A DNA stretch of 64,000 bases, from NCBI GenBank assembly GCA_001662655.1, contig KV460220.1, one strand, 5' to 3'. The notes under the pieces are model-generated. The model was not told the DNA's origin. It made no database searches and saw only the letters and a program-made list of their open reading frames with translations. This DNA comes from Pseudogymnoascus verrucosus (taxonomy: Eukaryota). Below, in pieces: positions 3,736 through 30,563 of this stretch (within the stretch, counting starts at the first letter, position 1; each line of letters starts with the position of its first letter). The translations under genes were made by a program, and so were the position numbers.

Positions 3736-3759
3736 AGTCAATACAGACGCTGAGGGATG

Positions 3760-3791
3760 TTCAAACTCAAACCTATTGATTGGTATTTAGC
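3760..3791. repeat. 32-bp direct repeat R, copy 1 (5S spacer)
   Basis: ttcaaactcaaacctattgattggtatttagc; 2 mismatches to the copies at 8863-8894 and 30532-30563. Confidence 0.95.
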
Positions 3792-3830
3792 GGTGATACT
3801 TCAAAAAGGCAAAAAAAATAAAAGACAAAA

Positions 3831-3895
3831 ACATACAACAGTGGGTATTCGCTGGTGGTCACCCACCCAACTACTAATCTACCGATCTCAAGCTT
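3831..3895 (-). rRNA. 5S rRNA gene copy 1, 3' part (interrupted)
   Basis: Reverse complement reads AAGCTTGAGATCGGTAGATTAGTAGTTGGGTGGGTGACCACCAGCGAATACCCACTGTTGTATGT, followed by T-tracts (Pol III terminator); joins 8759-8812 to give a 119-nt 5S. Confidence 0.95.
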
Positions 3896-4100
3896 TTAGT
3901 AGATTAATACTCAGGACGGTGCCATTTGGACTAGTGGGTGAGCGTTGCCGCCTTTAAGATTTTAATGTCCTCGCAATGATCCGGTTGTCCCCCTTAGCTA
4001 CCTGATGGCGACCACGTCGACACGCACGAAGTGGGTCTTGTATTAAGGCGCGATGAACGCGATGCACCGCGACTTTGGATGGCCATGGATAATCCGGTAC

Positions 4101-4150
4101 CTAGGTGAGCGAAGGTGAGCGTGGGTGAGCAAGGGTGAGCGAGGGTGAGC
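4101..4150 (+). repeat. Five tandem 10-mers nnnGGTGAGC upstream of a TATAAAA
   Basis: ctaggtgagc gaaggtgagc gtgggtgagc aagggtgagc gagggtgagc; inverted copy gctcacccttgc at 8660-8671. Confidence 0.9.
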
Positions 4151-4819
4151 TTGAAAATGGTATAAAAGGCACGCTCCCGCCATGTCTAGATTTCCCTGTC
4201 TACCATCTACAACATACTTCATTCACTTTCAAGGACTTACCTAGTAATATGAGACGGAAAACCCTCATCTTCCACCACGCACAAGGAAGGTCTGGCCACT
4301 TTTAAGTTCTAGATTGCTAAAAAAAATATATTACACGTCCACGTAGTTGCGTGTTACTTGCGAGGTCTTCCTAACTTAAGGGAACATATCAGGGCGATAA
4401 TAGTTAAATATTATTTTTATAAAGTTTACAAATGAGAATTTAACGACGCTGTCAACTTTAAGTTGGGATGTATATATAGAAACGTTGTACATTTTCTAAG
4501 TTATAGCGCCGGCTAATCTAACTCTGTTAATACAGCTAACGAAAGAGACACATTAGTTCTTCCTCTGTTGCCTTGTTATGAGATGCTTGTCTCATTTCTG
4601 TTGCCTCATCTCCCGCCGTTTAGAAATACCACCTTTCGTCATCGATTTAGCTAAGGTTGAGGTGATTTGTAGTATGGTATAATATTCTCCTCTACCATAT
4701 TCCAAGTATTTACAAGAGAACAGAAATGTCAGAAATGAAACGAGATGGCGAGATCGTGGCAATAGTTAGACCGCTTGCCATCTCAAAGCAACTTATTCCA
4801 CCCACTACAGTCTCCTTGC

Positions 4820-6368
4820 TCATAGCAACACAGCAAACAGCGCAGCGAATCCAGCACCAAGACCAAAAATCGCCGACATAGGACCATTAGGCACAGCAGC
4901 TGCGGCGGAAAAAATAGGCACGCTGGTGGTCGTCGCGGAAGGGTTCGTGTTCGTCAACGTGGCGAGTGTGGTAGGCACAGCGGACGGTGGAGTTGTTGGC
5001 TCTGGAACGCCATCGGGGCAGTGCCAGTGGTCGCCGTGAGCAACACACTCGCCTGATGTAGTCTCACTTGCCGTGGCAGTAGGCGTAGATCCTGGTGGAG
5101 TAGAAGGCTCCAGCACGCCAGCTGGGCAGTCCCAGTGGTCACCATGAGCTATGCATTCGTCGCCGGTGAAAGGTGGTGTGGTTCCACCCGTTGCACCTCC
5201 TGGTGGTGTTGTTGGCTCGGGCACGCCGGCTGGACAGTCCCAGTGGTCACCATGAGCTATGCATTTGCCGCCGGTGACAGGTGGTGTGGTTCCACCTGGT
5301 GCATATCCTGGTGGTGGTGTTGGCTCGGGCACGCCGGCTGGGCAGTCCCAGTGGTCGCCATGAGATACGCATTCACCGCCAGTGACAGGTGGCGTAGTTC
5401 CACCTCCTGGTAGCGTTGTTGGCTCCGGAACGCCAGCTGGGCAGTCCCAGTGGTTACCATGAGCTACACATTCGCCTTCAGATATTGGTGCGGTGGTCGA
5501 GGTAGGTGACGATGTTGAGGTAATCGTTGGAGGTGGGGTGGTTGGTTCTGGCACGCCCTCTGGACAGTGCCAGTGGTCACCATGAGCTACGCATTCACCT
5601 TCAGATATCGGAGCTGTGGTTGAGGTAGTTGACGATGTCGAGGTAGGTGTTGGAGGTGGTGTTGTTGGTTCTGGAATGCCCGCTGGGCAATCCCAGTGGT
5701 CACCATGAGCCACGCATTCGCCTTCAGATATCGGAGCGGTGGTTGAGGTATCTGACGATATTGAGGTAGACGTTGGAGGTGGGGTGGTTGGCTCTGGCAC
5801 ACCAGCTGGGCAGTCCCAGTGGTCATCGTGAGCTACGCATGTTGGTGCAGCCGTTTCAGTGGGGTTGACGGAACTGCAATGCCCTGGGGATTGTTAGATA
5901 TCTGAAGATTCCTGATATAATGAAAAGATGCAGGGAAAGGAAGGCGGGTGTCTCACAATGGTCACCATGGAGTGTACAATCGCCAGCTGTTGGCGAGGGC
6001 GGAATAACCACAGTCGTAGTAGGGCAGGCTCCCGTGATCGTGTAGGTGTTGATGATGATCTTGTAACCGGCCGAGGTGAGTACGTGCGAATCCTCAAAGT
6101 TGTAGGCCGTGATAAGGCCGAGGCCGGGGAAGTTGAACGCGGTGGTGTGGACGGCGATCTGGGAACCCGTCTCGGATGCGGACCCTTGAACGCTGTTGAC
6201 AGAGGAGGCCCAGTTCTTGTAGTCGGTCACGGTGTGATCAATCCCGAGGCTCGTTACGGTCTTCGTGCACAGCTCGGAGGCGGCAGTGGTGATTCCTGCC
6301 TGGGGCTGTGGGAGGGCAAAGGCAAGCCTGACGAGCACGCTGCCTGCGAAAAAGTGCAGGAGATTCAT
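4820..6368 (-). CDS. Secreted, probably GPI-anchored protein with 9 C-x-x-H-G-D-H-W-[DH]-C repeats (putative metal/zinc binding)
   Basis: Signal peptide MNLLHFFAGSVLVRLAFA; GT-AG intron 5956-5884 joins the two ORFs in frame (about 491 aa); Pro/Thr linkers; hydrophobic C-terminal tail. Confidence 0.85.
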
Positions 6369-7283
6369 GGTCGGAATTGATGATGGTGATTGAGGGCTGG
6401 CCTCGACTGATCTTATCTGTCAAAACGAATGAGGATGGGTGCAGCCTTGATTAGGGTGCCGAGAGCTCTTTTTATATAACTTCGACAGAGCAGCCTCATA
6501 TTGCATAATTGGCTGGAGCGCCGGACGGTACTGAAGTTATCATATCACGTAACAACAAAGGCAACAACAATCTAGCCCTTAGCTATCACAACCTATCACC
6601 CATGTACCGTAGCATGGCGTCGGGAAAGAGAGGGTATGACAGGAAAATGGCGCAGAAAACGAGTTAGGAACCAGCTGGTATGCATAGTAATGTTCGGTTG
6701 GCCACTGTGTTAACGCGCCAAGTATTGGTTCTGGCCCTTTAAGGATTAAATATGACAGCTCCCTAAGAAATACTAAGACGCTAATCCCGCGAACAGGTGT
6801 TTGTTTTCGGTATCGCATGCGGAACATCTGGTAACTCCAGCCTACACAGTGCAGAAAAGGGTTTGTCCGCACGGGAAGCATATGGCTTCCTCGTGGGGGT
6901 TGTAACCCTCGTGGGTATGACACCCATGGGATTATCTCTTGGATTATCTTGGGAGACGGGAGAAGACGCTGAGTTAGTCGTGTCAAGGACGCTGTCATTT
7001 AATCCGCCGAACTAAGAACGAAACCTTGGGGGATCTGTAGATTACTAGGTGACTGAAAGAAAGAGGCAGATGGAGAGAGAAAGAGGGGTAAAGAAAGGAA
7101 GGCATCACGGCATGGTCATGTTCGTCTTACCTCACGCCTCTGCCTCACCTTCTATATAACTCCCCCCTCTGCCTCCCAAACAACAAGACAACCAACACTC
7201 ACATCCACATCCACACACTCCATCTTTCCAACTTCCCGAAGCTCACAACCACTCACCATCAAATCACCACCAAATAAATCAAC

Positions 7284-7523
7284 ATGAAGATCACAATCAC
7301 CTCCGTCCTCCTCTTCGCCGCGGCTGCCAGCGCCATCGTCGTCAAGCGCCAGTGCGAGCCGCCATCCAACACCGAATGCACCCTCGTCGTCGGCACCACC
7401 TGCGATTACTGCTGCTCTGCCCTCCCAACGGGAACTGACGCCTGCCACGCGCACGAGCCCTTCCAAAGCTGCGCAGACGGCCAGGGAATTATCTTCCACT
7501 GCGATGCGGTCCACAAGTTGTAG
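7284..7523 (+). CDS. Small secreted Cys/His-rich protein (79 aa)
   Basis: Signal peptide MKITITSVLLFAAAASA, KR processing site, 8 Cys, CHAH and FHC motifs; TATA near 7153 and CA-rich leader; C-ending codon bias. Confidence 0.75.
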   Translation: MKITITSVLLFAAAASAIVVKRQCEPPSNTECTLVVGTTCDYCCSALPTGTDACHAHEPFQSCADGQGIIFHCDAVHKL

Positions 7524-8751
7524 ACGGTCCTCGGGATGTCTCGCTTGCAAACAATGAATAAGGTGAGTTGGGAGCTGGGATGTTAGTATAGGCTGAGGAT
7601 GTTTACTGATTAGTGACTTTCCTTGAAGATTGCCAAGTGTGGATGAATTGCAGATGGGATGGGGTCGTCGACTGTTTGCTAACTTACATTCAACATGGAT
7701 CAGCGAGGATGTTTTAATACATGAAATGTTCTCCATTATGCTTGGTGTGCCTTTTTGTCTACGTATGTGCGGTAATGATCGTGCAGATTGTACTGGTGAT
7801 CATAATACCTTACAATAGTATTGACCAACTTGGCGGAATTGATGGTGGTAGTAGTAAAAGATTCAATTCCTGGGGCAAGAGGATGATGATGGTCGTCGTC
7901 CCTCGAACCCTCCAGGTATCCCGCCAAGCGGCCAAGCCACGCCCCTTTCCGCTCCGCCCCGCCCGCAACTTTGACAGATGGCTCAATTGGTAGTCGCGAC
8001 ATCGCAGCGTCACCTTGGGGGATATAACTGCCATTGACATGGGGTCATTCTATTACACACATGTTTGATTAGCGACACTCACTTTGCATTTCCTTTCTGT
8101 TTTTTCGTTTCCGTGCCTTGAATGTGTGCGGGGGGGGGGTTTAGCTCTTTCCACTGTTCTGGTCTCCTTATCCAGTCGATGCCATGGAGGTGGACTCTCA
8201 GACAGCTCTTCCCGGTCCTCGGTTGTGCGATTATGGAGCTGTTAGGTTCTCGTGAATTTTCGGTGTTTTCTTGTCTGGTCCGATTTCCAGGGAGTAGAGG
8301 AAGCGTCCGTGTTTTCCTTGTTTTCAATAGTATCCCAGTCATTGTAAGATCCAATATCGCCTTGGTTGGGTGAGGATATAGAAAGCCTGAGTGGTCTCTC
8401 GTATGGGGTACCTCTAGATCGCTAGGTGAGTGTATTTCTTATAGCACCCCTCTATTGCACGCTTGTTGTTTCTCTGCGTTGATTCTAGATCCGAAGTGTG
8501 AGCTGGAAACGCGTGAAGAATGCGGGGTTAGTGAGGGGTACAAGGAGATGATTTGAATCTGAAGAACGAGTTTGGATAAATCAATCACTCAACCATAGTC
8601 ACCAATCCAACTATACGTATCTACTCGGTACCATTTCCACAGACTATACTTGCCTTAATGCTCACCCTTGCTTCACCCCTTAAGGCGGCAAGGGGCTCAG
8701 ATTCCACGCTATGCCTACTGGCACGATTGAGAGCATCAATCCACTGAACTA

Positions 8752-8812
8752 CAAGCTTGTGTATGGCAGAGCGGACGGGATGCCCAATTCTCTTGAGTCT
8801 ATGGTCGTATGT
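8752..8812 (-). rRNA. 5S rRNA gene copy 1, 5' part (interrupted)
   Basis: Reverse complement ACATACGACCATAGACTCAAGAGAATTGGGCATCCCGTCCGCTCTGCCATACACAAGCTTG is the 5' half of a Pezizomycotina 5S. Confidence 0.95.
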
Positions 8813-8862
8813 GATAGTTACTCAGTTGGTAGACTATATGTGCCAGCATACGACTACTGACA

Positions 8863-8894
8863 TTCAAACTCAAAACTGTTGATTGGTATTTAGC
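8863..8894. repeat. 32-bp direct repeat R, copy 2
   Basis: ttcaaactcaaaactgttgattggtatttagc, identical to 30532-30563. Confidence 0.95.
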
Positions 8895-8929
8895 AATGAT
8901 ACTCCGAAAAGGCCAAAAAAATGGCAAAA

Positions 8930-8959
8930 ACATACAACAGTGGGTATTCGCTGGTGGTC
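8930..8959 (-). rRNA. 5S rRNA gene copy 2, last 30 nt (truncated fragment)
   Basis: acatacaacagtgggtattcgctggtggtc is identical to 3831-3860; preceded by A-tracts (terminator on the minus strand). Confidence 0.9.
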
Positions 8960-9130
8960 GCTCAGTAAATGTGAGCAACTAATAAAATGAAGATAAAATT
9001 CAACCGAGGTCGGGTTAACCTCCCATTAGGTATAAGATATGAGGAATGAAATTGTGAATATACGCATACTAGAACATCGTTAGCTATCTTACTATGTTAC
9101 CGGGAATATTTAAGGATGTCTTGAATTCCC

Positions 9131-10213
9131 TTATAAATCCGCCTTTGCCTGCTCTCCAGCCCATGCCCTCCTGATCAATTCCCTAATCCCCTCTTTCTCC
9201 ACCCTCCTCGGATTCCAGTACGGATTCGATACCGCAATATTAGCCGCCTTGTCCACGTCCTCCTCCTTCATGCCAAAGTTCTTTAAGCCACGTTCGACGT
9301 TCAGATTCCCTAGTAGCACGTTGAGACCCTTAATTGCATCCCCATCGCTCCCTGGTAAAACCCTAGCTAGCTTTTCCATAACCCCCGGAATCTCAGACGA
9401 GTTGTAAGCAAGTGCGTGTGGTAACACTATCGTGTGTGTTTCGGCATGCGGGAGATTGAACGAGCCACCAAGGGTATGGCACAATTTGTGGTGCAGGCTC
9501 ATTCCCACCGAACCTAGGCACAATCCGCACAACCACGCGCCGTATAACGCCTCCGTCCTCGCCTCCACGTCGTTCGGCATATTAACGATCTGCGGTAGCG
9601 CAGCGGCGAGCGCCTGGGTGCCTTCTAGCGCAAGTAGGGAGATAATCGGGTTCGTATTCTGCGCATACAGCGCCTCGACGGCGTGTGCAATTGCATTTAA
9701 ACCGCTTGTGGCTGACATGGACGGCGGCAGTGTCATGGTGAGGTCGACGTCGTAGATCACCGTGCCGGGAAGGATCTTGGGGTCACAGCGTGTCTTCTTC
9801 ACACCGTCAGCTGTCTCCCCTAAGATGGGGGTCATTTCAGAGCCGGCGTAGGTAGTAGGGATGCAGATGTGAGGGAGACCGGTGCGGATACTAAGGGCTT
9901 TGCCGAGACCGATCGTGCTGCCGCCGCCGATGGATATGATGCTATCGGCAGAAATGGATTTTGCGTATTCTAACGCCTTTTCCGTGATGTCGGTTGGCGT
10001 GTGCATGGTCGCCTCGGTGAAAATGCCCGCGATGTTACCGTTGAGGATCTTCTTCAAGGTCTCAGCCTGTGAGACTTGGTAGGGAGTAGAAAGGAGGAGA
10101 GGAGCTTTGAGGCATTGTCGTGAGATTTCAGAGGGGAGTTGTTGGATGGTGCCCTTGCCGAAGATTACGCGGGAGGGTGATGAGGCGTAGACGAAGTTCT
10201 TGGAGAGATCCAT
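9131..10213 (-). CDS. Maleylacetate reductase (iron-type alcohol dehydrogenase family)
   Basis: Intronless 360 aa; GGGSTIGLGKA, PTTYAGSEMT, NAIAHAVEALYA and HHKLCHTLGGSFNLPHAETH motifs. Confidence 0.92.
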   Translation of the reverse strand: MDLSKNFVYASSPSRVIFGKGTIQQLPSEISRQCLKAPLLLSTPYQVSQAETLKKILNGNIAGIFTEATMHTPTDITEKALEYAKSISADSIISIGGGSTIGLGKALSIRTGLPHICIPTTYAGSEMTPILGETADGVKKTRCDPKILPGTVIYDVDLTMTLPPSMSATSGLNAIAHAVEALYAQNTNPIISLLALEGTQALAAALPQIVNMPNDVEARTEALYGAWLCGLCLGSVGMSLHHKLCHTLGGSFNLPHAETHTIVLPHALAYNSSEIPGVMEKLARVLPGSDGDAIKGLNVLLGNLNVERGLKNFGMKEEDVDKAANIAVSNPYWNPRRVEKEGIRELIRRAWAGEQAKADL

Positions 10214-11600
10214 GGCTCTTGCGTAGGGATTTTTGCATTTATTAGTATGAGGGTTTGGTTAAAAGTTATAGCAATAGAGAGGGACACATTTGGTTATATG
10301 TCTACAACCTTGGCCCGGAGTTGATAGATAAAGTCATGGGGGATATATCATTATCCGGCTAGTGCAGAGGTTGACAGACGATTCCGGAACGCATCCCAAC
10401 TTCGGAAGAGCTATGTCGCAGCGGGGCGGAATGACCCACGAACATTAATTGACCCTACCATATTACAACACGATCTGGAACAACATGCAATTTCTAATGG
10501 AAGGAGAACTCAAAGCACCGCTAGTGCTATCGAGGCCTGATGCCTACGTATTCGAATACGCCACACCTGTGTCTACAATGCCTAATCCGAAAGGCTAAGT
10601 GACGAGAATATACATATTTACAAGATAGACTGAACAGCGAGAAAAGCAAAAAAGTTAAATCACCCTCTTCTAACTAGTTTACCCCCCTAACCACCTTTAA
10701 TTGTATTTAATACATAAGGAGAGACGCTATGGGCTATATATTAAACAAACCTTAATCCTAAAGAGAAGTAGGAGGGGTGAATTCTAAGACTAGATACTCT
10801 AGTTTAAGTTTTCTAATACGAGCGAGGGAATTGAACACGGAGTTTGTTGTAGACGTCTATGGTTGGACTGGAACGTCCGGTAGTAGATCTTGGGTCTGTC
10901 AATCTGAGTGGCTCGGAATTGTTGCTGGAGCAAAAGACGGCCACTAAGAAATGTATCGGCTTATTGGATCGCGGAGCTTCCACTTCCTAGCAGTCTGCTT
11001 ACGTAATCTCAACCCGTTAAATCCTTCCTACCATCACAATGCCAAACGCCGCGATATGTGCAAAACCTATATACTTAGAACAAACTGAGCATTCGTTGTA
11101 GCAACTCGGGTTACTTGTCTGTGTGCTTATTTATATACTCTTAGAGAATCGTCAAATATCGGCTTAATTGAAAATGAGATCCGTAATGAAACAGAGATAA
11201 TTTAGACAGTGGTTTACAATGCGGTTTTCAAAACGAATCTACAAACATATTTTATCGATTCACGGCATTAAAAGTGGTGCAACATCACTCTTAAGTGGCT
11301 ACCAATTTCAAATGATAAGTGAACCCAGCCGCGTGTGCCGTGCCCTACGGCTATGAACCCGCACGACAATGGAACCTGCCGTTTATATACTTCGCATGAC
11401 GCGTAGGATTTTACCTTTTCCAGGCACAGTCCTAGTTGAAGATCGTCTCTGGCCCAGCAAGCCTTATGTGATAGAGAGCGCTATTGATTACTGGATGCGG
11501 AACAGCCGGCCTCAATGAAATCTAGAACAGTAATTCCAATTTGCTCCCACTAACTCGCCTGAACTCAATTCTATGGCTTGCGCTAACCCGCTCAACCTGG

Positions 11601-11659
11601 GGTTGATTGCGGGGCCCCGCAACCAATCTAAGGGGGTGTTCATATATAAACACCCCCTT
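11601..11659. promoter_or_regulatory. Palindromic promoter elements upstream of the MFS gene (inverted CreA-type sites; TATA inside an 11-bp inverted repeat)
   Basis: ttgcggggccccgcaa perfect palindrome 11607-11622 (two GCGGGG = SYGGRG); aagggggtgtt-catatata-aacaccccctt 11630-11659. Confidence 0.5.
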
Positions 11660-11763
11660 GGTTTCGTCTAGAGAAGCGTGGCAAATCCTAATACTTAAAG
11701 GTACAGAGTCTCAAGAGTCGTGAGGATATCGAAAAATAAGCCCTTGCCAGAAATACCTCGAAT

Positions 11764-13777
11764 ATGATACGCAAGGTACAGGGTACTGAAGTCGGAATGG
11801 AAACACTGGATCAAAAGGTATGTCTGAATCCTGCAAGTCAGGGGTCCGGAATTGTGTTAGGTACTAATAAGTGCAGCAGACGGAAGATGCAGCGCATGTC
11901 GAAAAGATTGGAATTTCTCATGACAATACCTTGAAGAAGGCGTCTGATTGTATTACAATCTTGATACCTCAGCCATCTGATGATCCAGAAGACACGTTGA
12001 ACTGGAGTCAAGAAAAGAAATGGGTTATGTTGAGTGTCGTGGCGTACTGCGCGGTTATGCCTGATATGCAAGCTGCATTTGGAATACCACTTGTCCCTGC
12101 GCAAGCAATCGAGTGGGGCATCAGCATCGACGAGGCTGGACGCTCTGTATCAGGCTGTGTTTTTGTGAGTGACGATCGAGCATAAATTCTCGTTCACCGT
12201 CGTTATTAATCATTCTATGTGAAGATGATAGGAGCTGGCAGTCTCTTCTCAGTTCCGTTGGTCCAGCGCTTCGGGCGACTCCCAGTTCTATTCAGGTCGA
12301 TGTTCATATCTTTTTGGATGACAGTATTTGCTACACTTGCACCGAGTCCAATCAGTTTCATCGTGGCCCGTTGTCTTCAGACGACGTTCTCTGCCGCACC
12401 GCAAGTGATTGGTCTTTCCTTCATCTACGACTTGTGAGTCTCGAGCCTGCAATGTCACTGTTTAAATAGCCTACAGTTCCTAACCTTTCTTACTAGATTT
12501 TTTTTCCATGAGCATGCACGTGCTATTGGGATATGGGCCTGGGCCTTCGTCGAGTCGCCCTTCATTGGGCCATTGATCAGTAGCATTGTTGCCAACTTTC
12601 GACCTTGGCAAGACGCATTCTGGGTTTGCACCGCAATGACAGGGCTGGCATGTATCCTTGTGATAATGCTTGTTCATGAGACTCTATATGACCGAGATAT
12701 ATCTATTCAGTTACCCGAAAAGGCAGCTGGACCGCTCGTGCGAAGACTGGAAATGATTTCCGGTGCATACGGCGCCAGGGTCAAAGGGCGGCCATCATTA
12801 GCCAAGAGCTCTATGAGAATGCTGGTCATTGCTTCACGTCCTTACTTTTTCCTCATTCTTGGTGAGTGCGTATGGAACATATAAGTCCTATAGGCTAATT
12901 ACGCGATAGTCTTTTATGCAATGACTTTCATGTGGTCCGTTGGAGCGAATACAACCTTGGTATTATGCACTTATAGCCATACGATGTTCCTCTTGCTGAT
13001 CTGTGCCATTAGAGCCTCTTCCTTTTCAAGCCCGTCGCGGCTGGCGGTTACGGCTTTAGCCAACTGAGTGTCGGATTGATCTACTTTGCTCCCATCACGG
13101 CGACCTTTCTGGGTGAATTATTCGGACATTATTTCAGTGGGTTCTACAATAAATTGACTCTCGTATTAGTATTGACAGTTTGATAGATGATTTTCTCGCG
13201 CGCAGGTATATGCAGCGACACTCTGGCGTGTTTGAGCCAGAAGCTCGCCTCTGGGTAGTGTGGATTGCTACTCCATTTATGGTCGGCGGCCTCATATTAT
13301 TAGGCTTCTGTTTCGAGCTTCATTTTCATTGGGTAGCAATTGCCTTTGCCTGGGGCATCTATTGCTTTGGTACTGTATGTCTCGCAAACAAGAACAAGCC
13401 ACATTTGGTCAATACAGAAGACTAACATTCATCAGCTGATTTCGACGGTGGGTATTACAGCATATGCTTTAGACATCTTCAAAGACGAAGCAGCTGAAGC
13501 AGCGGCTTTGATCAACTTCTCGCGTACGATCTCAGGATTCATTGTAAACTATTTCCGTACGTTTCTATTTCCTCTGAACTTGCTAGAGAAGGTTAAATAA
13601 TACTAACAATGATCAGAGTTCGAGTGGGCAGCCAAAGTTGGACCAGCTGGAAGTTTTGGAACTCAAGGCGCTATCTGCTTTGTAGCCTGGGCGATAATAG
13701 TATTGGTCCAGTGGAAAGGTAAATCTTGGCGACAATCTTTCCTTCCATCGACTACACAACATGTACGAGAAATATAG
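11764..13777 (+). CDS. MFS transporter (DHA1/Hol1-like), multi-exon
   Basis: LIPQPSDDPEDTLNWS, FGRLPV, F..HEHAR..GIW and FEPEARLW motifs spread over several exons with GT-AG introns. Confidence 0.85.
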
Positions 13778-15094
13778 AGCTGTCATAGGACAGTCGAACG
13801 TGCTTTATAGGTGTAAGATGCAAGCTTGTATTCAATGCATGATGCTTCACAATGATATCTTCATCTTGTTCGTACACGAAGGCATTTGCGGCTCATTTAC
13901 ATACATTTCGCTCCATTCGTTTCTGCAGACGATTAGCTGGTATTGATGATTGCCCCGGAAAGCAAATTATAGAGTCAAACACTAACCACCACTAGATCAC
14001 GCTGCCTGATTTTTGTTCTTGTGTTTCTCTTCCCCTCTTGGTTCGCAGAAGTTTAAAAATATAGAAGTATTCAAATTATTTACACTTCTTATATCATCGT
14101 ACACATATACTTTGTTAACTTGGTTTGAACGTTTTCTAATTCCATGTTGTTGTGATTGACTACAAGAATCGATCGTTTTCCGCATATTGTCGTCAAGCTG
14201 AGTGCTTACGATATCGAAACGCAAGATTTTGTCTCCGAGATAATAGCATCAGCAAACTGCAAACACCGTGCAGGGTATATCCCGGCTACTTAGTGACCTG
14301 AAATTCCCAACTAATCAACCTATTTTGGAGTCCATACAACCGATGACGGATGCGATGAGTTATTGTTAGGCGACATCATCTGGATAGTGCGCCACTGCCG
14401 AAAATGGCCGATGCTGGGACTCATTATATTTAAATGCTCCCATATGAAAACTCTTGGCCGACTGAGCTTCCAAGTGATGGATTGAAGTTGTAGGGGTTTC
14501 TCCACCTCGAGTTGCCTCGGGATGAACCCGGTCCACAACCTCCCTGCGACCTCCATACTTTGTAAACATCTCAACTCGACACAACCTTCCCCGCAAGTAC
14601 GGAAACTAGTGCCCAGAGGTCCCGCAATTGGGCTGATGGGTTCTGAGTTTCGAAACCTGGGCGAATAATGTGAATTTGCCTGAAATTCCAAAAAGGCTGT
14701 GAGCCTTGGCATTTCTCGGGATTTTTTTGGCGCAAATTGATCGGAAATCTGTTGGACAGTCGTACGAGCTGTCATTCGACCACCGAGAAACTTGTGGAAG
14801 CCATAAAATAAATAGCCAATCACAACATTATATGGCTAAATGGTACTCTTGTAAGGCCAAACCATATTATTGGGTTTACGGAGCGAATGCAACTACTCAG
14901 TTGTGCAGGACTGAGGTCTCGAAGGAATCGATTGGCTAGGGTTTATCCCACGGGAGCTTCGTATTGAATCGCTTCTAATAACGCACCTGTAGGCACTTGT
15001 TAACTTGCATTGCCTGCCTTAAAGCTGTGCACCTAATAACAGTACGACTCACTCAGTGAAATTTAATAAAAACAAAAACTAGACACAAGCAAAC

Positions 15095-19683: not shown

Positions 19684-20142
19684 GGTCCGTTTTACAAAGG
19701 TCTTGAATCAATACCTCACAGGTTGTTCAAGACTTTCTGTTCTTATATGTTCGTCTCCCTCGGCGTTAACTTGGACCCCAGTTTCTTATACATACAAGGC
19801 TACCAACAGATCGTCTACTTGATTGGATAAGAATCTAAGGGCCAGATCTGATTGGATTGCGGAATTCCCAGCATGCTTGATTTTGGCAACTAGTCCCGGC
19901 CGGGTGGACCCATTATTTGAGTGAATACCACAAGTCCACATATTCGACCATCCGGGATGTGCGTAATAGCGTCACTTCTTCTTGAGTGATATGGATTTAA
20001 TCACCCACGAGCGTTGGTCATAAGCAGCTTGCATACTATTTCGTATCCAAGTTTTTAAAACCACAATTTTTCAGCGATTGTTTCTAGCACCTATCAGTTG
20101 CCGCTCTCTGAGACGTCTTGAGAGCAAGTCCCTTCCTTCATA

Positions 20143-21431
20143 ATGGTTACCGCCACAGCTCTTGTCCTTAAGGCTGCGAATTCAAATTTTCAAGTTGAGC
20201 GCGTGGAACTGAAACGCTTGCAGCCAGAAGAGGTGCTTGTTGAACTACGAGCAACTGGTGTATGCCACACAGACATTTCTGTCCAACAGGGCAAGATTGA
20301 GGCAGTTTTTCCAGTTGTGCTGGGTCATGAAGGTATTATATAGCCATCTTAACGTGAGTAAACCTTCAAAGAGATCTGGCTAATCACCTATACCACTCAG
20401 GGGCTGGAATTGTTAGAGAAGTGGGTGCCAACGTAGATAATGTTCAAGTTGGGGATCATGTGTTGCTATCCTATTCCTACTGTAACCAATGCCGCCACTG
20501 CCAGAGGGGGAAAACATACCAATGCGTCAAGATGGCAGAGCGAAACTTCGCTGCCTGCCGCCCAGATGGCTCTTCGCCAATGGAGTGGAGAGGAGCATCT
20601 CTGCGTGGTTGTTTTTTTGGTCAATCATCATTCTCGAGCGTTGCCCTTGTTCAAGCAACATCCTGTGTGAAGGTCGATAAAGACATGCCCTTAGCAAGTC
20701 TGGCGCCTCTAGGGTGCGGCGTTCAGACAGGAGCTGGAGCAGTTTACAACGTCCTCCGACCAGTGGATGCCGGCATGCAATCCGTGGTCATCTTTGGAAT
20801 CGGCGGTGTTGGCAGTGCGGCTATCATGGCCGCCAAGGTCATCAGTGAGGATCATGCTGGGATCTTGACTACGATAATCGCAGTTGATCTCAGCGAGAAG
20901 AGGCTTGAGCTTGCAAAACAACTTGGTGCCACGCATGTTATAAATCCGTCCACGACTGAGAGCGTCGTTGAAGCCATTCACAGGGTCACAGACCCAGACG
21001 GCCTCGAAGGAGCGATTGACTGCACCGGGGTTGTGGCCGTCATCAATGACATGATTGTTGCTCTGGGCCCTGGTGGACGAGCAGTCACCATCGGTGCGCC
21101 ACCTGCATCTGCTAAGATGTCTATCCAAGTATTCCCGTTCATAAATGGCTGCAAAAGCTATGAGGGTTCCAACGCTGGCAACAGCAATTCGAGTGAGGTA
21201 GCTAACCCTTACCTGCTCCACCCTGTCCTTCGCATGCTAAATTTTTTAACTGCTTAGTTCCTCCCATTCCTTGTTGAACTTTTCCGCCAAGGTCGACTGC
21301 CGATTGAGATGTTGCAAAGGCAATATAAGCCGACCGAAGTGAACGAGGCAGTCGCGGCCATGTTGGAGGGCAAAGTGGTGAAGCCGGTCATCCTCTGGCC
21401 AGAAGAGCAAATTCAACTAGTGGGAAATTAG
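20143..21431 (+). CDS. Zn-dependent aryl/benzyl-alcohol dehydrogenase (MDR family)
   Basis: GVCHTD, LGHEG, structural Zn CNQCRHC...C, FFGQSSF and APLGCGVQTGAG motifs; two introns. Confidence 0.9.
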
Positions 21432-22141
21432 GTCCAAATGAAATCAGGGATGAGGAGGGTGATAGTGAATAACTCAGAATTTCCAATACCGATTGTTGTT
21501 TGTTTGCCTCAGGTAGATATTATGCTCGTATAGTGTGTACGTACACCGCACTTACTGTATGAAGGTACTGATATCATCACCATGCTACCTAATAAAAACA
21601 ATGCCATATTCTTCATGGAAAACCGCCGCACGTAAATGGCGAGGAGATGCGTGAGGTGAGCTTGAACGTCTAAATGATTGGCTTGGGTTATCCGCCTGGT
21701 ACCCTGGGTTCTTTCCAGCTAACCCGTGGGGCGGAAGCGAACTACGTTACTGTTGTAGGTGGGGGTACGGAGATCCACAGCCGTCATTTTAGGGCCAAAA
21801 TGCCCACCATATCCCATGGTGCTCATCCTCTTCTCCCTAACAGCAGTTACAGAGGCGAACCCGGGTCACGCCGTACCGCTCCCTCACTAACTATTTGCCT
21901 ACAAAACCTCAATATAGTGGGGTAATTTAAGTAGTAGCACTATGTACTGTAAGTTACTGTAAGCTATATTATAAACTAGAAATAATGGAAGGTAAGTACT
22001 TACTAGGGAACACTTTTAAATACTACGCCATTAGCATCCATCCCCTAAATATATATATCTCAACCCGCTCATACAACCCATATTATTGCTCATCCTAAGC
22101 AAAAGTAATTAGCGGCCATCACAGTACATCAGCCAGCCATC

Positions 22142-23305
22142 ATGGACCCCACAGAAGTAAATATCCCCGACGTCAAGGATATGAACATCGACAACATCAC
22201 TAAAAACACCATCCTCATAAATTCTCAGGGGCCCAACGCACGAGTGAAGTACTTGTTTGAGCGCCTGGTCACACATTTGCACGATTTCGCCCGTGAGACG
22301 CGCTTGAGTACGACGGAATGGAAAACAGCGCTAGACTTTTTGGTTTCGGTTGGACAGATTAGTAGCGATGTGCGACATGTACGTGCTTTCTTTGCAGAAA
22401 ACATCCATGAGGGTTTTTGAGGAGCATAGTCTGATGGCACGTAACACAGGAATTTATCCTGCTCTCAGATATTCTAGGACTTTCCCTCTTAGTCGACGCT
22501 ATCGACCACCCCAAACTGCCTTCTAGCACCGAAGGGTCGGTTCTCGGGCCCTTCCACAGCCATGAGGCCGAGACAATCGAGTCCGGAAAGGATATTTCAT
22601 CGGATCCGAATGGAGAGACATGTCTTGTGATCTGCACCGTCAAGAATCCATCTGGTGCCCCGATTGAAGGCGTAAAGATCGATATTTGGGAGACAGATTC
22701 TAGTGGGCACTACGACGTGCAGTATTCTGAGCGCGAGGGACCGGATGGACGATGTGTCATGAAGTCTGATAAGGACGGGAACTTCTGGTTTAAGGCCATC
22801 GTCCCTGTCAGCTATCCCATTCCGCATGATGGTCCTGTAGGTCAACTTTTAAAGCTGCTCCACCGACATCCTTGGAGGCCGGCTCATATGCATTTCATGT
22901 TCGAAAAGGAGGGCTGGGATCACTTGATAACGTATGTTCTCTCTGCTTCGCTCTTTATGCTCTCTTCCCTTTTTCATCACGCCATGATAGTGACAATAGT
23001 ACCACCTGAACTGATGCTCGCTCCATAGTGCATTATACATAACCCCGGACCCGTACCTTACATCAGACGCCGTATTTGGAGTGAAAGACTCGTTGATTGT
23101 CAGCCTAGGCAAAGTGTCTGCCATACAAGCAGCCGAGTACGGCGTCCCAGAAGGAACCGCTTTGATAACGCACGACTTCGTACTAGTATCGGATAAAGAG
23201 ACGCAGAGTTTAAGAGATCAGAACGCATTGAAAGCAGTGGCCGACTTGTTTCCTGGGAAGAAGATGAAGCTACTGGACCATTTGCCTGTGCCGGATGTCG
23301 ATTAA
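22142..23305 (+). CDS. Intradiol ring-cleavage dioxygenase (hydroxyquinol/catechol 1,2-dioxygenase family)
   Basis: LVTHLHDFARETRLSTTEW, EFILLSDILGLS, TEGSVLGPF, GHYDVQY, YPIPHDGPVG and RPAHMHF motifs; two introns. Confidence 0.93.
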
Positions 23306-24196
23306 GTTAGTGGAGAGTGTCTCATGTCTGAGGAATCGTTGAGATTGCAGCTGCCTATTCCTTGTTAATTTTGTGGCTCTGAATGGGAGCGGTGGAAGTC
23401 ATGGCGTTGCTCTATGTGCGTTGATAACACGCCATACCTATCGAGCCTGTAGCCTAGAAAAGCATTATGGTTAGAAAAGCCGCGAATCTCAAACCTCAAC
23501 TATCATTTGTGTCACGAGTGAAGATGTTACCTGCTGCAACGAAACTTTGCCTCCTTGCCTTCAAATGTGCGCAGATTACAAAACACTCAGACATTTTGCC
23601 ATCACATGCCAAACCTGCAAATAGTTGCAATTTGTTACGCCTCGCTCATACCATGAGCATAGCTAAAGTACATTGCCACACCGAGCTTTCTTGAAGCAAC
23701 TACACAGAAGCACCAAGCAGCAATAAAGCAAATTGAGTGGCCCTCCTCACTTGCATACTTTCTATTTCTGCTGTTACTTTACTGAATTATCGAGAAGCTC
23801 TGGTGAACTGACCAGCCTTTTTCATGCTTGTCAATTGGTCACTGCCGTAAAGACGATAGAATGTCGAATCCAAGGGAGGCTCCAGACGTACTGCCTGGTG
23901 TACTATGGTAGAACCAGAAAGCTGGGCTGTGCCCGGCCGCCATACACAAGGACTTTTATGAATGTTCTTAGTCGAGACTCGCCCCACATGACTCCCGAAA
24001 ATCATATGGGGTAGGCGGGGATGACCCATGCTCCACATAGTTATCTAATCGTAGTCGTAAGCGGAGTGCGTCTGCGAGAATTGTTGAAGCGAAGTGCGTC
24101 TGCGACCACCAATTTTTGTAGGTACCTTTACATAATAAATTGTATAGAAAGGTACATAGATCAATTTATTTATTTGCGAAATTATCACTTTTACTC

Positions 24197-26234
24197 CTAC
24201 TCACACTCCCATTTCCCATCCTTCTCAAGCTCATATTGGAGCTCCCGCTCAAGCTGGCTCGTAGGCTCAAGCTCGAACTCAAATCCAGCTTCGAAGCTGG
24301 TTTCCGAGCCAGCTTCGAAGCCAATTTGGAAGCCAGCTTCGAAGCCGGTTTCCGAGCCAGCTTCGAAGCCAGTTTGGAAGCCAGCTTCGAAGCCGGTTTC
24401 CGAGCCAGTTTGGAAGCCAGTTTGGAAGCCAGCTTCGAAGCCGGCTTCCGAGCCAGTTTGGAAGCCAGTTTGGAAGCCAGCTTCTGGGTCGATAATTGGG
24501 TCCTGGTCTTCTGGAGGAATTGGGTGGCCAGCTCGAAGAAGAGCTTTTACCCTCTTTTTCCGGAGGCCCTCCTGTTTCCGGGCCTCAACCCCAGCCCTAT
24601 AAAGCTGCTTCCGGGCCTGGTTGGCAGCTAGCCGGGCTACTCTAGCTTCCTTCGCCTGGGCTTTCTGAGCTATAAGCTCAGCTTTGGCAGCCCGAAGCTT
24701 ATAAGCTCGCTCAGCAGTAAGCTCGCCTCCAATTTGAAGCCGGGCCCGGCTCCTACTCTTCCCTTTTTTCTGCTCCTGTTTCTGCTGCTGTAGAACCTGT
24801 AGATCAAGCTCCTGAAGCTGGCCTGAGGCCAACATCCGTTCAGTGCCAGTAGCCCAGTTGCCCCAGCTCTTCTGTGAGGGGCTGCTTAGAAGCCCTATAA
24901 GCTTTGAGTTCCACCGCTGTAGCCCCTGTTCTGAGTCCTTAAAAGTTGTAGGTTTAGGGGTTATTGGGTGTAGTAGTAGGGTAATTGGTGGTGTAATAGG
25001 CCTAGGAATAGGCTTTGAGTAGGTCCGAGTCCTTAAAAGTTGTAGGTTTAGGGGTTATTAGGTGTAGTAGTAGGGTAATTGGTGGTGTAATAGGCCTAGG
25101 AATAGGCTTTGAGTAGGTCCGAAGCTTCATAATAGCTGTATTACAGCTTATTGGCCAGATTCCTAATTTCTGGAAGGCGTGGGTTATAGTAGACTCCTTA
25201 AAAGTCTGCTCTCTTATATGTGGAATATCTCTCATAAATGAGGACAGATTGTATTGAAGGTCCATCTCTCGTATGGCCTTAAGCACAGCTTCCCTATGGT
25301 AGTGCTTATAAGGTTAGAATATCCCCACATCTAATGGCTGTAAAACGTGTGTAAGATGTAAGGGGAACGTATAAGTGATAATGTTGCTCTCTGCTGCTAT
25401 AATGATGAAATCATCACTTGTATGGCTAATATGTGAGTCGAGTATTAGGAGCTTTAGGACGTTATGTAGAGCTGTATGCTCTATAAAGTGCTGTAGCCAC
25501 TATAGTGTAAGGTGAGAATTAGAAAATCCAGTGTCTGATAGTAGGATGAGCTCTGTGCCGAGTAGATTTAGGTGGTACCATGAGTCCATATGTATTTTAC
25601 CCGGTAGAATAAGTACTGGTGGAATAGTCCCTCCTACTGTAGACACAGTTTCTACAATAGTAATAGACTGTCGATTTTCAGGGCTTAGAGTATAGAGCTG
25701 TTTAGCTATTCGTGGCACAATAACCTTCTCTCCTCCTGGAATTCCAATTCTAAAGCCAGTTTCATCTATATTCCAAATTGACTCTGGCTTTATATAGTGC
25801 TGTAGTATAAACTCATAGTATTTCTCAAACCACTCTTGAATAGTACTCTCATCTTGAGCTTTAACACGCTGTTGAGCAATTGGCTTAGTTGTAATAATAT
25901 GGAAATCTCGAAGCTCATTCTTAATGAGCTTACTAAGCCAGCTTCGTGAGGGTGGTGGTAGTGGCTTCCGTAGGTGGCATATAGCTGCAAAGGTCATTTG
26001 CCGGGTAGCTCCTAGGCCTAGCTCATATTGCTGTATAATCCACTGCTTTAGAGCTTCTATTTGAGCTGTAGTGAGCAGCCTATTCTGACCACCTTGGCGG
26101 GGCTTGTGGAGTCGTTGGATGCTTGACTGTAGAGTGGTTCGTGGAATGTGGAAAATCCTAGAAGCAGCAGCTACAGACTCAGTCGGATTGTCTGCTAGCC
26201 ACTGACGGGCATTTAATAGAGGAGTCCCTTCCAT
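24197..26234 (-). pseudogene. DDE_1 (pogo/Fot1) transposase pseudogene
   Basis: In-frame stops (e.g. TAG at about 25500 in L-*-W-L-Q-H-F) and a 94-bp tandem duplication (24933-25122) that shifts the frame. Confidence 0.88.
24283..24485. repeat. 12-bp minisatellite in the transposase 3' end (GFEA/GFQT/GSET codons)
   Basis: Repeated agccagcttcga / agccagtttgga / agccggtttccg units. Confidence 0.9.
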
Positions 26235-27123
26235 TAAATTGTTTTCATTGAGTTACTATGTAAATTACTATGTAGAGGAATGTTGTAGGTTTTGGTGAGG
26301 GGTAGCGGTGAACTGGCGCCAGTACAAACTGAGCGATCTCGCAGACGCACTTCGCTTCAACAATTCTCGCAGACGCACTCCGCTTACGACTACGATTACT
26401 AGTAACGAATTTTGTGGTGGTTTGACGCAGTTCGCTTCCGCTCACAGTTAGGTCGTGTTCCGGAATGATTCCGGCCACAGAATTTACCGCAGGCACATCC
26501 CACACGCGATGACGGCTCTACACTAAAGAAAGCGTTCTGCAGAATGGAAATGTGTTTAAGCATGTATTCCGTGTGAGACGCAAAGTTACCGAAGAGAGTC
26601 AACACAAATCTAACAGATGTTCTTTTTACCGTAGAAGTGAAAAAGGCTCTAGACACTTGCCTAAAACGATAGTATTGTATCACTCAAACGGTTGGCAAAT
26701 GATTAGGATAGCACGCAAATAGCACATCGTAATAATAAGAAAAGCCAAAAAAAAAACTTAGCTTGATAGTCCATTCATTCTTTGTCCGCGAACCTCCGCT
26801 CACCTGCAACGAGACATGTGGAATTGTGCATCCGATGTCATGCTTCGCACCTCATACTCTACTTTAGTTAGTAGGTAATGGTGGGAAAAACCGCCACTTT
26901 CGCTAAATCAATACGGCCTACCCCACCCATTTTCTACGGGGTCGGTCCCCGCCTTTCTCGCCCTGTCTTTCTTCATGCACTTCCCTTAACATCATAAAGT
27001 TAGCTCCTGTCTAGAGTCATCCTCGCGTGATACTCTACAGGCAAACTCTAATCAGTAAATCATTCTGCCCTCTTTGTTCAGAAATCTTCACCAAAATATT
27101 CGCTGGCAGACGGAGCACCCGCG

Positions 27124-29869
27124 ATGACTAGCATTCCGCACATCCCTAATCACGGAGCACCCGATGATCAGCTCGCGACCAGATTACTGATACCAATGGC
27201 CAAGAGAATCGAGCCACGTCGGATAAGGAAACCGCGCAACAAGACTCTAGAAGCTTGTCAGAACTGTAGAGAGAAACGCATCAAGGTGGTTCCAGATTAG
27301 AAACTCAAATTAAGGCCAAACATATCTAACATTTATAGTGTGACGGCTGTAGACCTTGCCGTGGATGCCGGAATAAGAACATTGAGTGCAGTCTCGCTGT
27401 CGCTCGAACTGACCAGAATGACCACCTAGCTGAGTACGATTCCCGGTGAGCAAGACAGACAATTTAACAGGATTAACCGAACGCGCGTGCAGAAAGTTAA
27501 ACCAAGCTTTAGACAGGCTTTCTAGATTGGAAGCACGCCAACAACTTTCAGAGCAATCGTGGGGAACTGTTCGAGAAGGTGAGCAACTGCTTCATGAAGG
27601 GGGGGTGCATTTTGATCCCTTTGATGTTGTATCTTGCTAATTAAAACCTATCAGTCTTGGGCGCCGCAATTGGGAAGCCCTCGACACCGTCTATAACGGA
27701 GCTCAATCAGCAGACCGGATGTCCAGAATATTATGGTAAGAGCACTATCTAAAGCCTTCTCGGTCATTGTATGTTGACTCTTCTCTCAAGGCCGCACATC
27801 GAACCTAACATTGGCCACATCTATAAATAAGCGACTTGGACAGCTGGACAATAATGGATTAGCTACTCTACCACAACCCCGCGATGAATCCCTGAGCGTG
27901 AATCCGATCTCAAGAACAAGCGTCGGTCTGGCCAACCCTGAGAGGCTGGTCGAGGTGTGTGACTATGTTGTACCACTTACCGCTTCTAACAGACGATACC
28001 GAACGCTTCAAAGGGATGTAGCTGATAGGCACATTGAGAGCTTTCTTACCACAATCCATATATACTTTCCGGTCTTTGACATGTCAAGCTTTCGAGCGAA
28101 ATATGCACGTTGGAGAGAATTATTTAGCAGCAACCGTCGCTTCGGACACCATAACGACGATCAGGTCCAACAGCAGTCATTCTGCCTCCTCTATGCTGTT
28201 CTTGCCCTTGGGGCGTTATACTCCTCCGGCGAAGAGGACAGCTCATCTTGGGCAGCTTGGTACTTTTCAGAGGCTCAGGAAATCATCGGACGTCTGTTCG
28301 ATGCCGTAAATCTAGAGCTGGTACAGGCTGCAATGTTTATGGTAGGTCGCATCTCGACTTCGCGTCTGACAGAAGCATATGCATCTGTGTTTATAGGGAG
28401 CTTATGCCCAGCACGTCATCAAACCAAATTGTAATCCCTCAATAACCTCAGCTTTGTTTCTGGTACTGAGAATCGTTAGTGGCGTATAATCTCATCGGTC
28501 TTGCAACTCGAATGGCATTCTCGATCGGATTGAACATAGCAGGTCAAGGTCAAAGTCCGAGTGGGACGTATCTAGACGAGGCGAAACGTACCTGGTGCAT
28601 GGTTTATGTGCAAGAGGTGGAGCTGAGCTTAGATTCTGGGCGCCCGATGTCCCTGAGGAGCTGCGACGCCAACGTTCCTTTCCTCTCTCAGAGAATCGAA
28701 AACGATGCCGTAAGTATTAGTACAAGGAGGTGCACAGGTGTTGTTACCACTTGCTGACGAGTAATAGGCATTGCTCGGAGACCTTGCCACTTCTAAAACG
28801 GTGTTCATTAAGTATCTTACTGGAATTGCTCAGATAACGAGGGATATTATGACTTTCGTTAGTTACCATATCCAGGCCTTTGGTCCTCCTAGTCATGAGT
28901 TCAGGGCGAGAGTTCGTCGCTTTTCTAACAGCCCATGATAGCTTGATGGATCGAAGACAACAATCACCACCCCTCCATTAAAGTGGGACCGAATTGATAG
29001 CTTCGATAGCCAGTTGTTACAATGGCGAGAGTCTCTCCCGAGTCACTTGCGATTTCGAGACTATCTTACAGACCAAAACTACTCGCCAGAAACACTTTCA
29101 AGTTGGACATCTAGACAAAAGAGTAGCTTAAGAGTCCGTAAGTCTAATACTGTTCTCACTTACTACCAACACATACTAGCATCAGGATAATCATTAGCTA
29201 ACAGTAACGCAAGACTATAACATGGCAGTCATGATTTTGCACAGAACTTCCCTTCAGGAAGCGGAGAAGACCACACGTGACAAGGTTTCCATCGCATCAG
29301 AAGCCAAAGGTGAGCAGGCGGCAAGCGACATGGTCCGCCACATTTACAGCTCCTTTAAGGCGGTCCCAGATTTACGGAAATGGACTTACTACTGCTTCTA
29401 TTGTCTGCAGGCCACGCTCACATTGCTTATAAAGCTCGTAGACGAGCCTTTACTAGAGAGTAACCTCAGCGTGGCTGAGCTGTGTGAGCTCAGTATTGAT
29501 GTCTTTCAGCAGATTGATCTCAGGTCTGCAGACCAATGCGCTAAGATGGTGCGTAGAGTTCTGGATAGGTGGAATTCTCACCGCTGCAGACTTCTAGCTC
29601 AACAGAAAGGACATGCCGGTGCAGAACCCGTGGAGTCTATGCCCGGTCCACTTAGAACTCCCGATTCTATTCCAACTCAATTTGAAAGCGGGGATTATTA
29701 CCAAGATCCGGCCCCTATGATGGTAGATTCAACTGAGCGAGAGCTTGAGTTTGATTTTGAGACAGTTTCAACAGGACGGACAAGTGCAGGAACAGTAGTA
29801 TCTAGTGAATATCCATGGCTTGCAGCCGACGACGAAGCTTTATGGAGTTACTTATTAGATTTTAGTTAA
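27124..29869 (+). CDS. Zn(II)2Cys6 transcription factor with fungal-specific TF domain (likely cluster regulator)
   Basis: ACQNCREKRIK|CDGCRPCRGCRNKNIEC binuclear cluster split by an intron; IHIYFPVF, GLATRMAFSIGL and AKRTWCMVYV...LSLDSGRP motifs. Confidence 0.9.
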
Positions 29870-30421
29870 ATTTGTATTAATTAACCTAGCTATTGCTAGC
29901 ACTTATCTTACTGTTTGCTATAAACTAAATTTAGTAACAGAAATAGTCTTAGGGTAAGGGCTTATAAAGTTAAACGTCTAACCCTTATGCCTATTTAAGG
30001 GTGCTAGATAGGAGTAATAGGAATAAGGGCATATTAGGTTTAGGTGATTAAATTGTAGATGCGGGCAAAGTCGCGTGCGCAGTCAGAACGGGATTTGTAC
30101 TATAGACTCTATGAGGGGTCTACCCCGCGTCTCCGCAACAGTGACTCCACAGTTGCACTCACGTTACAATAATCACTATAATGGGATCTGTATCCTCTCT
30201 GATCAATCCACACGCCCTCGAATCGCCTTCTGTCTTGCTGCATGTTCACAATTACAGCTAATGGTAGAAATCGCGACTGGGTCTTTGCTTAGGAGAGACG
30301 CGCCTTCCTTAAAGATAGGTACGACTCCCTGCCTATACAACCCCTAATTGGCACCTTAGCACTTACTACTTTAGGTAATGGTCTGTTAGAAGGTAGGACC
30401 GGTTGCTAAAACCCTCTATTA

Positions 30422-30482
30422 CAAGCTTGTGTATGGCAGAGCGGACGGGATGCCCAATTCTCTTGAGTCTATGGTCGTATGT
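30422..30482 (-). rRNA. 5S rRNA gene copy 2, 5' part (interrupted)
   Basis: Identical to 8752-8812; ends at CAAGCTT. Confidence 0.95.
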
Positions 30483-30531
30483 GATGCTACTCAGTTGGTG
30501 GACTGTATGTGGCAGCATAGGCCCAGTGACA

Positions 30532-30563
30532 TTCAAACTCAAAACTGTTGATTGGTATTTAGC
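30532..30563. repeat. 32-bp direct repeat R, copy 3 (right boundary of the accessory region)
   Basis: Identical to 8863-8894; similarity to the 5S spacer stops right after it. Confidence 0.95.

Follow-up and report, generated by a model that had tools for sequence, protein, structure and literature searches.

Two neighbouring 5S rRNA genes split by gene-carrying DNA in Pseudogymnoascus verrucosus: a probable case of Starship-type insertion

Fungal 5S rRNA genes are a documented target of Starships, the giant transposons moved by a tyrosine recombinase known as the captain. Among 222 curated Starship insertion sites 23% lie within 5S rDNA, direct repeats measure 6–16 bp and Enterprise itself targets a palindrome (PMC11162782). 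The 5S-specific Osiris elements of Aspergillus fumigatus, which belong to the Enterprise family, have the direct repeats ttaagccac, aagcc and aagccacacg (PMC12153272 Table S3), and a region of chromosome 3 with six to eight clustered 5S copies, where 75% of the resident Starships sit in 5S, has been called a 'Starship hotspot' (PMC12153272, mBio 2025). Voyager of Macrophomina phaseolina inserts 20 bp from the 5S 5' end (PMC9156397), and a captain can act in trans on a mini-element (PMC10104507). Dada transposons also target multicopy small RNA genes, 5S in fish included, and make 6–7-bp duplications there (PMC8869645). The locus described here lies in a 64,000-nt stretch, called the window below, of contig KV460220.1 of the filamentous ascomycete Pseudogymnoascus verrucosus (GenBank assembly GCA_001662655.1). 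Its minus strand carries two neighbouring tandem 5S rRNA units, spaced 236 bp apart, each interrupted by gene-carrying DNA, insert A in unit 1 and insert B in unit 2. The favoured explanation, given a probability of about 0.55, is that Starship-type elements with an Enterprise/Osiris-like target hit both units, insert A being a small non-autonomous member and insert B a remnant, and that both are of tyrosine-recombinase origin.

Whole-window Rfam scans, at the gathering score and at E up to 1, reported no 5S because each 5S piece scores under the gathering score of 38; the halves were detectable only with a search cut at the break. A 70-base search matched 3830–3895 on the minus strand to positions 55–120 of the 5S_rRNA model (RF00001) with 31.8 bits (E 1.4e-05), and a 208-base search matched 8752–8812 on the same strand to positions 1–61 with 18.6 bits (E 0.13). 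The halves of unit 1 share a 7-nt overlap, AAGCTTG, which starts at model position 55 (55–61). Removal of insert A (4,856 bp) and one copy of this repeat restores an exact 119-nt 5S. The matches to the halves and their exact joining confirm the split genes and the size of insert A as given in a preliminary description of the locus made from the sequence alone. That description named CAAGCTT as the site; a site in this part of the gene stands, with the repeat corrected to the 7-bp AAGCTTG inside the 8-bp palindrome CAAGCTTG (5S nt 54–61).

Unit 2 keeps its first 61 nt and its last 30 nt (Table 1), and 5S nt 62–89 are absent, so the left junction of insert B is not at the CAAGCTT site. On the other side inserts A and B adjoin the 5S 5' half at the identical nucleotide: 8750–8815 and 30420–30485 are identical at 66 of 66 positions, two insert bases, TA, included. 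The break of both genes at one site, as previously described, therefore holds for the 5' junctions but not for the left junction of insert B, which lies within the 5S 3' part. Longer comparisons gave 136 of 145 identical columns between 8750–8894 and 30420–30563, and 89 of 101 between 3760–3860 (a repeat named R1, the terminator and the 5S 3' part) and 8863–8959. The order along the locus is R1, terminator, 5S, spacer, R2, terminator, 5S, spacer, R3, which amounts to two tandem units and no longer array; no third 5S gene follows R3, and the sequence beyond 30563 is unrelated. What had been called a tandem 5S array is thus a pair. In the window, 12-mers of the joined 5S match only the four 5S pieces, apart from one 12-nt chance match at 23939. 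A second junction of the form 5S, spacer, R, terminator, 5S, about 87% similar to 8776–8944 and at single-copy depth, was seen elsewhere in three related genome runs (X1, X2 and X3, introduced below), so small tandem 5S pairs with this spacer are not unique to the locus.

Insert A ends in imperfect terminal inverted repeats (TIRs) of about 65–73 bp, 3898–3958 against 8679–8745, with a local alignment score of 20 that was attained by 0 of 500 shuffles (8.7 ± 1.5). Its interior holds one evident gene, which codes for eight repeats of 36–41 aa, each with the motif C-x-A-H-G-D/N-H-W-D/H-C-P. The product is secreted and probably anchored by glycosylphosphatidylinositol (GPI), and its neighbours in the protein Atlas ('His-triad hairpin / GPI anchored protein', score 0.90), which count as a lead and no more, suggest metal (zinc?) binding. 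No transposase or recombinase domain was found among the Pfam-scanned open reading frames (ORFs) of insert A, no further copies of its ends were found within the window (blastn E<1; alignment), and a signature of repeat-induced point mutation is absent from inserts A and B. A Tc1-like model with a 'TA' duplication was tried for insert A and rejected, as it fails to restore a 5S. Given its direct repeats, its TIRs and its membership of a multi-copy family, insert A is, to judge from the sequence, a structurally complete, captain-less and non-autonomous transposed element.

The family was followed in Logan contigs of four related genome runs (X1 to X4) aligned to window positions 1–20000. In the unique parts the differences from the window were 0 in X1, which is probably the source, about 0.2–0.4% in X2 and about 1.7–2.0% in X3 and X4. 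In the right TIR, 33, 32, 24 and 32 distinct contigs of X1 to X4 extend over position 8718, and 10, 7, 9 and 11 over position 8749, which lies 2 nt from the junction. Distinct contigs were counted since summed word depths, about 90–130x single copy at 8718, are not copy numbers. The contigs of the right TIR lose similarity before 8677 and run past the 5S 5' end (8812–8822) into several different flanks. The left end of insert A is also multi-copy, up to about 4193 by contig depth and joints, and an X4 contig of 12,162 nt ends in a left end like that of insert A followed by a 5S 3' half. Internal length variants occur among the copies, with joints such as 3897 to 3979, 3953 to 4122 and 4037 to 4147. 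The family was seen only at one site of one gene, the 5S gene.

Insert A itself looks old and vertically inherited since in X3 and X4 its interior has diverged from the window (42/2443 and 46/2429 differences, about 1.7–1.9%) as much as the left flank has (68/3823 and 76/3890). It is presumably at the same locus in these two runs, whose contigs do not bridge flank and interior. The joined, intact form of the 5S gene (joints 3888 to 8752 and 3889 to 8753) is present in contigs of all four runs. These joints reach a summed depth of 22–25x single copy in X2 to X4; being multi-copy they indicate generic intact 5S copies elsewhere and not an empty allele of this locus.

When metagenome contigs were scanned for the 5S/TIR junction, one record came up, L001; scans of the genome-contig and viral-contig collections for the TIR core gave no matches. 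L001 has a 5S 5' half joined to a TIR of the insert A type, with 94.3% identity over 158 nt (5S part included), and five GGTGAGC repeats behind the TIR (166–211) as in insert A. Its interior of more than 10 kb is unrelated to that of insert A and holds genes for a methyltransferase, LysM proteins and a GH18 chitinase together with a nested Tc1-like transposon. Insert A (4.9 kb) and L001 thus share their ends and their site and differ in cargo, and conserved ends with variable multi-gene cargo are the Starship pattern. The nested transposon of L001 (1937–3404) is Tc1/mariner-like with perfect 37-bp TIRs (1937–1973 and 3368–3404) and an intact-looking ORF of 456 aa (1937–3307) with helix-turn-helix (HTH) and DDE domains. 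This ORF was considered as the enzyme of the A family and rejected, as it sits in a nested element with TIRs of its own. The 5S 5' half of L001 (31–91) differs from that of the window at three positions, in the strand expected to pair with the AAGCTTG region; this 5S copy is perhaps a variant, perhaps a pseudogene in decay.

Insert B carries genes that together look like an aromatic-catabolism cluster (Table 1). Its terminus at the 5S 5' half is TAAT, which is also the more frequent terminus in the A family: T is found at 8749 in all contigs listed at that position, and in L001. An X2 contig of 19,165 nt passes from the 30-nt 5S fragment (8930) into insert B, so this junction is not peculiar to one assembly. 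In X3 and X4 the flank and the interior of insert A were covered and 9339–20000, within insert B, was not, which is not evidence of an empty site. Insert B is presumably a one-ended remnant that has lost its other end and 28 nt of 5S, probably by deletion, and would now be immobile.

The link to Starships is made because of the literature on 5S sites, on the Osiris repeats and on captains acting in trans. The AAGCTTG site would correspond to the Osiris direct repeats, which appear to start at the same AAGC loop of 5S. Osiris elements resemble the inserts in lying within 5S coding sequence at this loop, in their direct repeats of 5–10 bp, in having metabolic gene clusters among their cargo and in that neighbouring 5S copies hold different elements (PMC12153272). 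They differ in having a captain, a length of 11.7–139 kb and TIRs of 8–17 nt (PMC12153272 Table S3), whereas here there are two 5S units without a captain, insert A is a 4.9-kb element with TIRs of about 70 bp from a family of dozens of copies, and insert B has a single end. Voyager is likewise 5S-specific, has target-site duplications, TIRs and cargo and splits a 5S copy, but it is giant, has a captain and uses a different site from nt 55–61 (PMC9156397); it was the example named in the preliminary description.

The same description likened the locus to an integron-like docking array. Integrons and the integrative islands of tRNA genes do resemble it in that a fixed site or a conserved RNA gene is reused for unrelated cargo. 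Here, however, there is no adjacent integrase, no cassette recombination site and no common promoter, and the 5S gene is destroyed and not restored. The inserts lie in two separate 5S genes and have no common cassette-end motif beyond TA/TAAT. The comparison would rest on two units, with no recombinase, empty allele or excision product found, and it is not upheld. That a 5S cluster can act as a hotspot has been published for A. fumigatus chromosome 3 (PMC12153272), and the present locus, with two units and occupants that are old or crippled, is a minor case of the kind.

In the Starship-type explanation two tandem 5S units would each have been hit at the 8-bp palindrome by site-specific, cargo-carrying elements. 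Integration would have been carried out in trans by a captain encoded elsewhere, with the crossover within AAGCTTG, and both 5S copies would have been inactivated by the splitting of the internal control region. The inward TATA-box-like motif behind the left TIR of insert A may have a promoter role and would be what remains of a promoter for the first gene of the element itself. Site-specific insertion, proposed before for both inserts, is borne out for insert A by its direct repeats, TIRs and multi-copy family; insert B matches the target with a direct repeat on one side only and contributes a single site-specific junction.

A number of results weigh against this explanation. Dozens of copies per genome are atypical for Starships. 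No empty site was shown; no contig of the four runs bridges the locus. Neither DUF3435 nor another recombinase was found by Pfam, run without a positive control, in any of the 88 window ORFs of at least 120 aa or in 72 insert ORFs of 70–119 aa, which agrees with the earlier remark that no captain is visible; the 10 kb of L001 gave none among 20 scanned ORFs out of 33 of at least 100 aa (three of them rescanned at E up to 10). For insert B no second direct repeat was found, nor a TIR between its ends (452 of 500 shuffles attain the score), and its ends have no significant similarity to those of insert A (blastn E<1; alignment). The right ends of A and B align with a score of 13 that was attained by 14 of 500 shuffles, too weak for kinship, and the right end of B has no partner TIR in the window (blastn E<1). 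Starships measure tens to hundreds of kilobases, whereas insert A is smaller than the smallest Starship row seen in PMC12153272 Table S3 (11.7 kb) and insert B, at 21,462 bp, is incomplete. The TIRs of insert A and its subterminal arrays are far longer than the Osiris TIRs and look more DDE-like, and the correspondence with the Osiris site rests on the AAGC motif and not on an aligned A. fumigatus 5S (PMC12153272).

The A family might instead be a 5S-specific DDE cut-and-paste family, Dada-like or of another TIR superfamily, that makes 7-bp duplications, with insert A as a Pack-MULE-like member and most copies resembling miniature inverted-repeat transposable elements (MITEs). DDE TIR families typically have long TIRs, short repeats in a subterminal position and many copies, and the internal length variants among the copies point in the same direction. 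Like Dada and the Dada-5S of ray-finned fish, the family has TIRs and inserts specifically into a multicopy RNA polymerase III gene, and the 7-bp duplication of insert A inside 5S falls within the Dada range (PMC8869645). Nevertheless this origin is judged unlikely. Dada elements have a DDE transposase, are reported in fish, use another 5S site and are described without large cargo, and the passages of PMC8869645 that bear on the matter contain no fungal report. No Dada-like transposase was seen in the window or in L001, and no DDE transposase is tied to the A family, the sole one seen being that of the nested element in L001. Pack-MULEs and MITEs are comparable in being enzyme-less, with family-specific ends, many copies, host genes in some of them and an enzyme acting in trans, but they show little site specificity as against one site of one gene here. 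Starships are the better fit to the Osiris-type site and to the members that carry more than 10–12 kb of intact cargo, namely L001 and the contig from X4.

It is also conceivable, though improbable, that only insert A transposed and that insert B is ordinary or horizontally acquired DNA placed in unit 2 by rearrangement, either because an older copy of the A family was lost, all but its last bases, by deletion or illegitimate recombination, or through gene conversion of the junction from unit 1. Insert B has only one precise junction, since the other falls within the 5S 3' part, where 28 nt are lacking; it has no TIRs, and the 66-nt identity of the 5' junctions, TA included, could reflect copying between the units. 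However, insert B diverges from insert A 2–4 nt inside the junction and a copied junction would have to end exactly there. The spacers that adjoin the shared 66 nt agree at only 91%, which gives no sign that the junction region as a whole was converted recently. An identical break point in a 119-nt gene is moreover unlikely for an unrelated breakpoint. Least probable by far is an assembly artefact in which repeated 5S/TIR stretches were misjoined and the split genes come from different loci. In each of the four runs the short-read contigs stop within the 5S/TIR repeats, none listed spans the whole structure, and the order of segments across repeats of 60–300 bp rests on the given assembly. Against misjoining, the repeats are no longer than that, the flank continues to the 5S 3' half up to 3893 in X4, X1 and X2 contigs link the interior of insert A to the right TIR as far as 8699, the 5S fragment continues from 8930 into insert B in X2, and the same split-5S and TIR junction recurs in L001, a public contig that is unrelated.

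Starship insertion into 5S rDNA and 5S-rich hotspots are already documented and the locus opens no new category; what is new here is the small, multi-copy, captain-less member. Its interest lies in its small size: at 4.9 kb, without a captain and with long TIRs, insert A carries one surface-protein gene and belongs to a family that occupies one 5S site in dozens of copies. A further and more doubtful extension of the Starship-type explanation is that the whole A family consists of miniature captain-less Starship derivatives, whose dozens of copies would have arisen through a borrowed Enterprise-type captain acting in trans and would occupy a sizeable share of the 5S genes of the genome. Each miniature would then comprise TIRs of about 70 bp, GGTGAGC repeats as recombinase-binding sites, a promoter stub and sometimes one cargo gene. 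Among the papers listed by a targeted literature search none, judged by title and the opening of the abstract, deals with miniature captain-less Starship families, which is weak evidence that they are undescribed.

If a captain does move the A family in trans, then Starships spawn non-autonomous derivatives as DDE transposons do, the ends and binding repeats offer a compact natural substrate for studies of captain recognition, and fungal 5S pseudogene counts could be taken as a record of such insertions. If the family does consist of miniature Starships, it would be the equivalent of MITEs and Pack-MITEs for the giant transposons of tyrosine recombinases and would explain the many 'truncated 5S pseudogenes' of filamentous ascomycetes. 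Such pseudogenes have long been known in these fungi; older work on Aspergillus reportedly dealt with 5S pseudogenes with a conserved 3' block. Insert B would illustrate the fixation of a catabolic gene cluster after its carrier has lost one end.

Table 1. Coordinates of the 5S pieces, the two inserts and their contents in the window
Feature	Position	Strand	Basis or remark
R1, ~32-nt repeat downstream of each 5S unit	3760..3791	.	repeat comparison
T-run terminator of unit 1	3796-3830		RNA 3' side of 5S 3' part
5S unit 1, 3' part, nt 55-119	3831..3895	-	Rfam model 55-120, joining of halves
Direct repeat copy 1, AAGCTTG on minus strand	3889..3895	-	7-nt overlap of halves
Insert A, 4,856 bp, complete non-autonomous TIR element (from sequence)	3896..8751	-	direct repeats, TIRs, family copies
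Insert A left TIR	3896..3958	.	local alignment vs shuffles
Five GGTGAGC subterminal repeats, 10-bp period	4103..4150	+	behind insert A left TIR
TATAAAAG, TATA-box-like, oriented inward	4161..4168	+	sequence motif
Insert A cargo gene	4820..6368	-	signal peptide, at least 1 intron, eight Cys/His repeats, hydrophobic GPI-like C-terminus
Insert A right TIR, 95% identical to L001 94-181	8679..8751	.	alignment; contigs diverge before 8677
5S unit 1, 5' part, nt 1-61	8752..8812	-	Rfam model 1-61; direct repeat copy 2 = 8752-8758
Inter-unit spacer, 117 nt, with R2 at 8863-8894 and unit 2 terminator	8813..8929	.	repeat comparison
5S unit 2, last 30 nt, nt 90-119	8930..8959	-	5S joining; X2 contig 8930-20000
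Insert B, 21,462 bp, one-ended	8960..30421	-	Pfam contents; no TIR between ends
Fe-alcohol dehydrogenase (ADH) family gene, probably maleylacetate-reductase-like (from neighbours)	9131-10258	-	Pfam
Major facilitator superfamily (MFS) transporter	12210-12884	+	Pfam
Flavin adenine dinucleotide (FAD) monooxygenase	15272-16457	+	Pfam
P450	17894-19707	-	Pfam
Zn-ADH	20122-21257	+	Pfam
Intradiol dioxygenase	22109-23028	+	Pfam
Nested TIR element, 2.35 kb, perfect 60-bp TIRs	24046-26398	.	repeat comparison
Fungal transcription factor	27778-28754	+	Pfam
5S unit 2, 5' part, nt 1-61, same sequence as in unit 1	30422..30482	-	repeat comparison
Unit 2 upstream spacer, with R3 at 30532-30563	30483..30563	.	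repeat comparison

To the right of 30564 lie housekeeping genes, for an FHA/RING protein, Vps16, a UBP-type hydrolase, a DEAD-box helicase, FtsJ, an importin, a mitochondrial carrier and a PDR-type ABC (ATP-binding cassette) transporter. The G+C content of this flank is 0.516, that of the left flank (1–3759) 0.462 and that of insert B (8960–30421) 0.464. The two long ORFs of the left flank have no clear Pfam family, and the DNA to the left of the 5S pair may likewise be accessory.

The nested element of insert B contains a 12-bp tandem array (24234–24521), which yields spurious Rfam matches to microRNA families, and two tandem copies of a 94-bp unit (24930–25117) that are 98% identical. An ORF on its minus strand (25500–26252) gave weak matches to HTH_psq and Tc5-type DNA-binding domains. 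From these features it is probably a recently moved, non-autonomous pogo/Tc5-like transposon.

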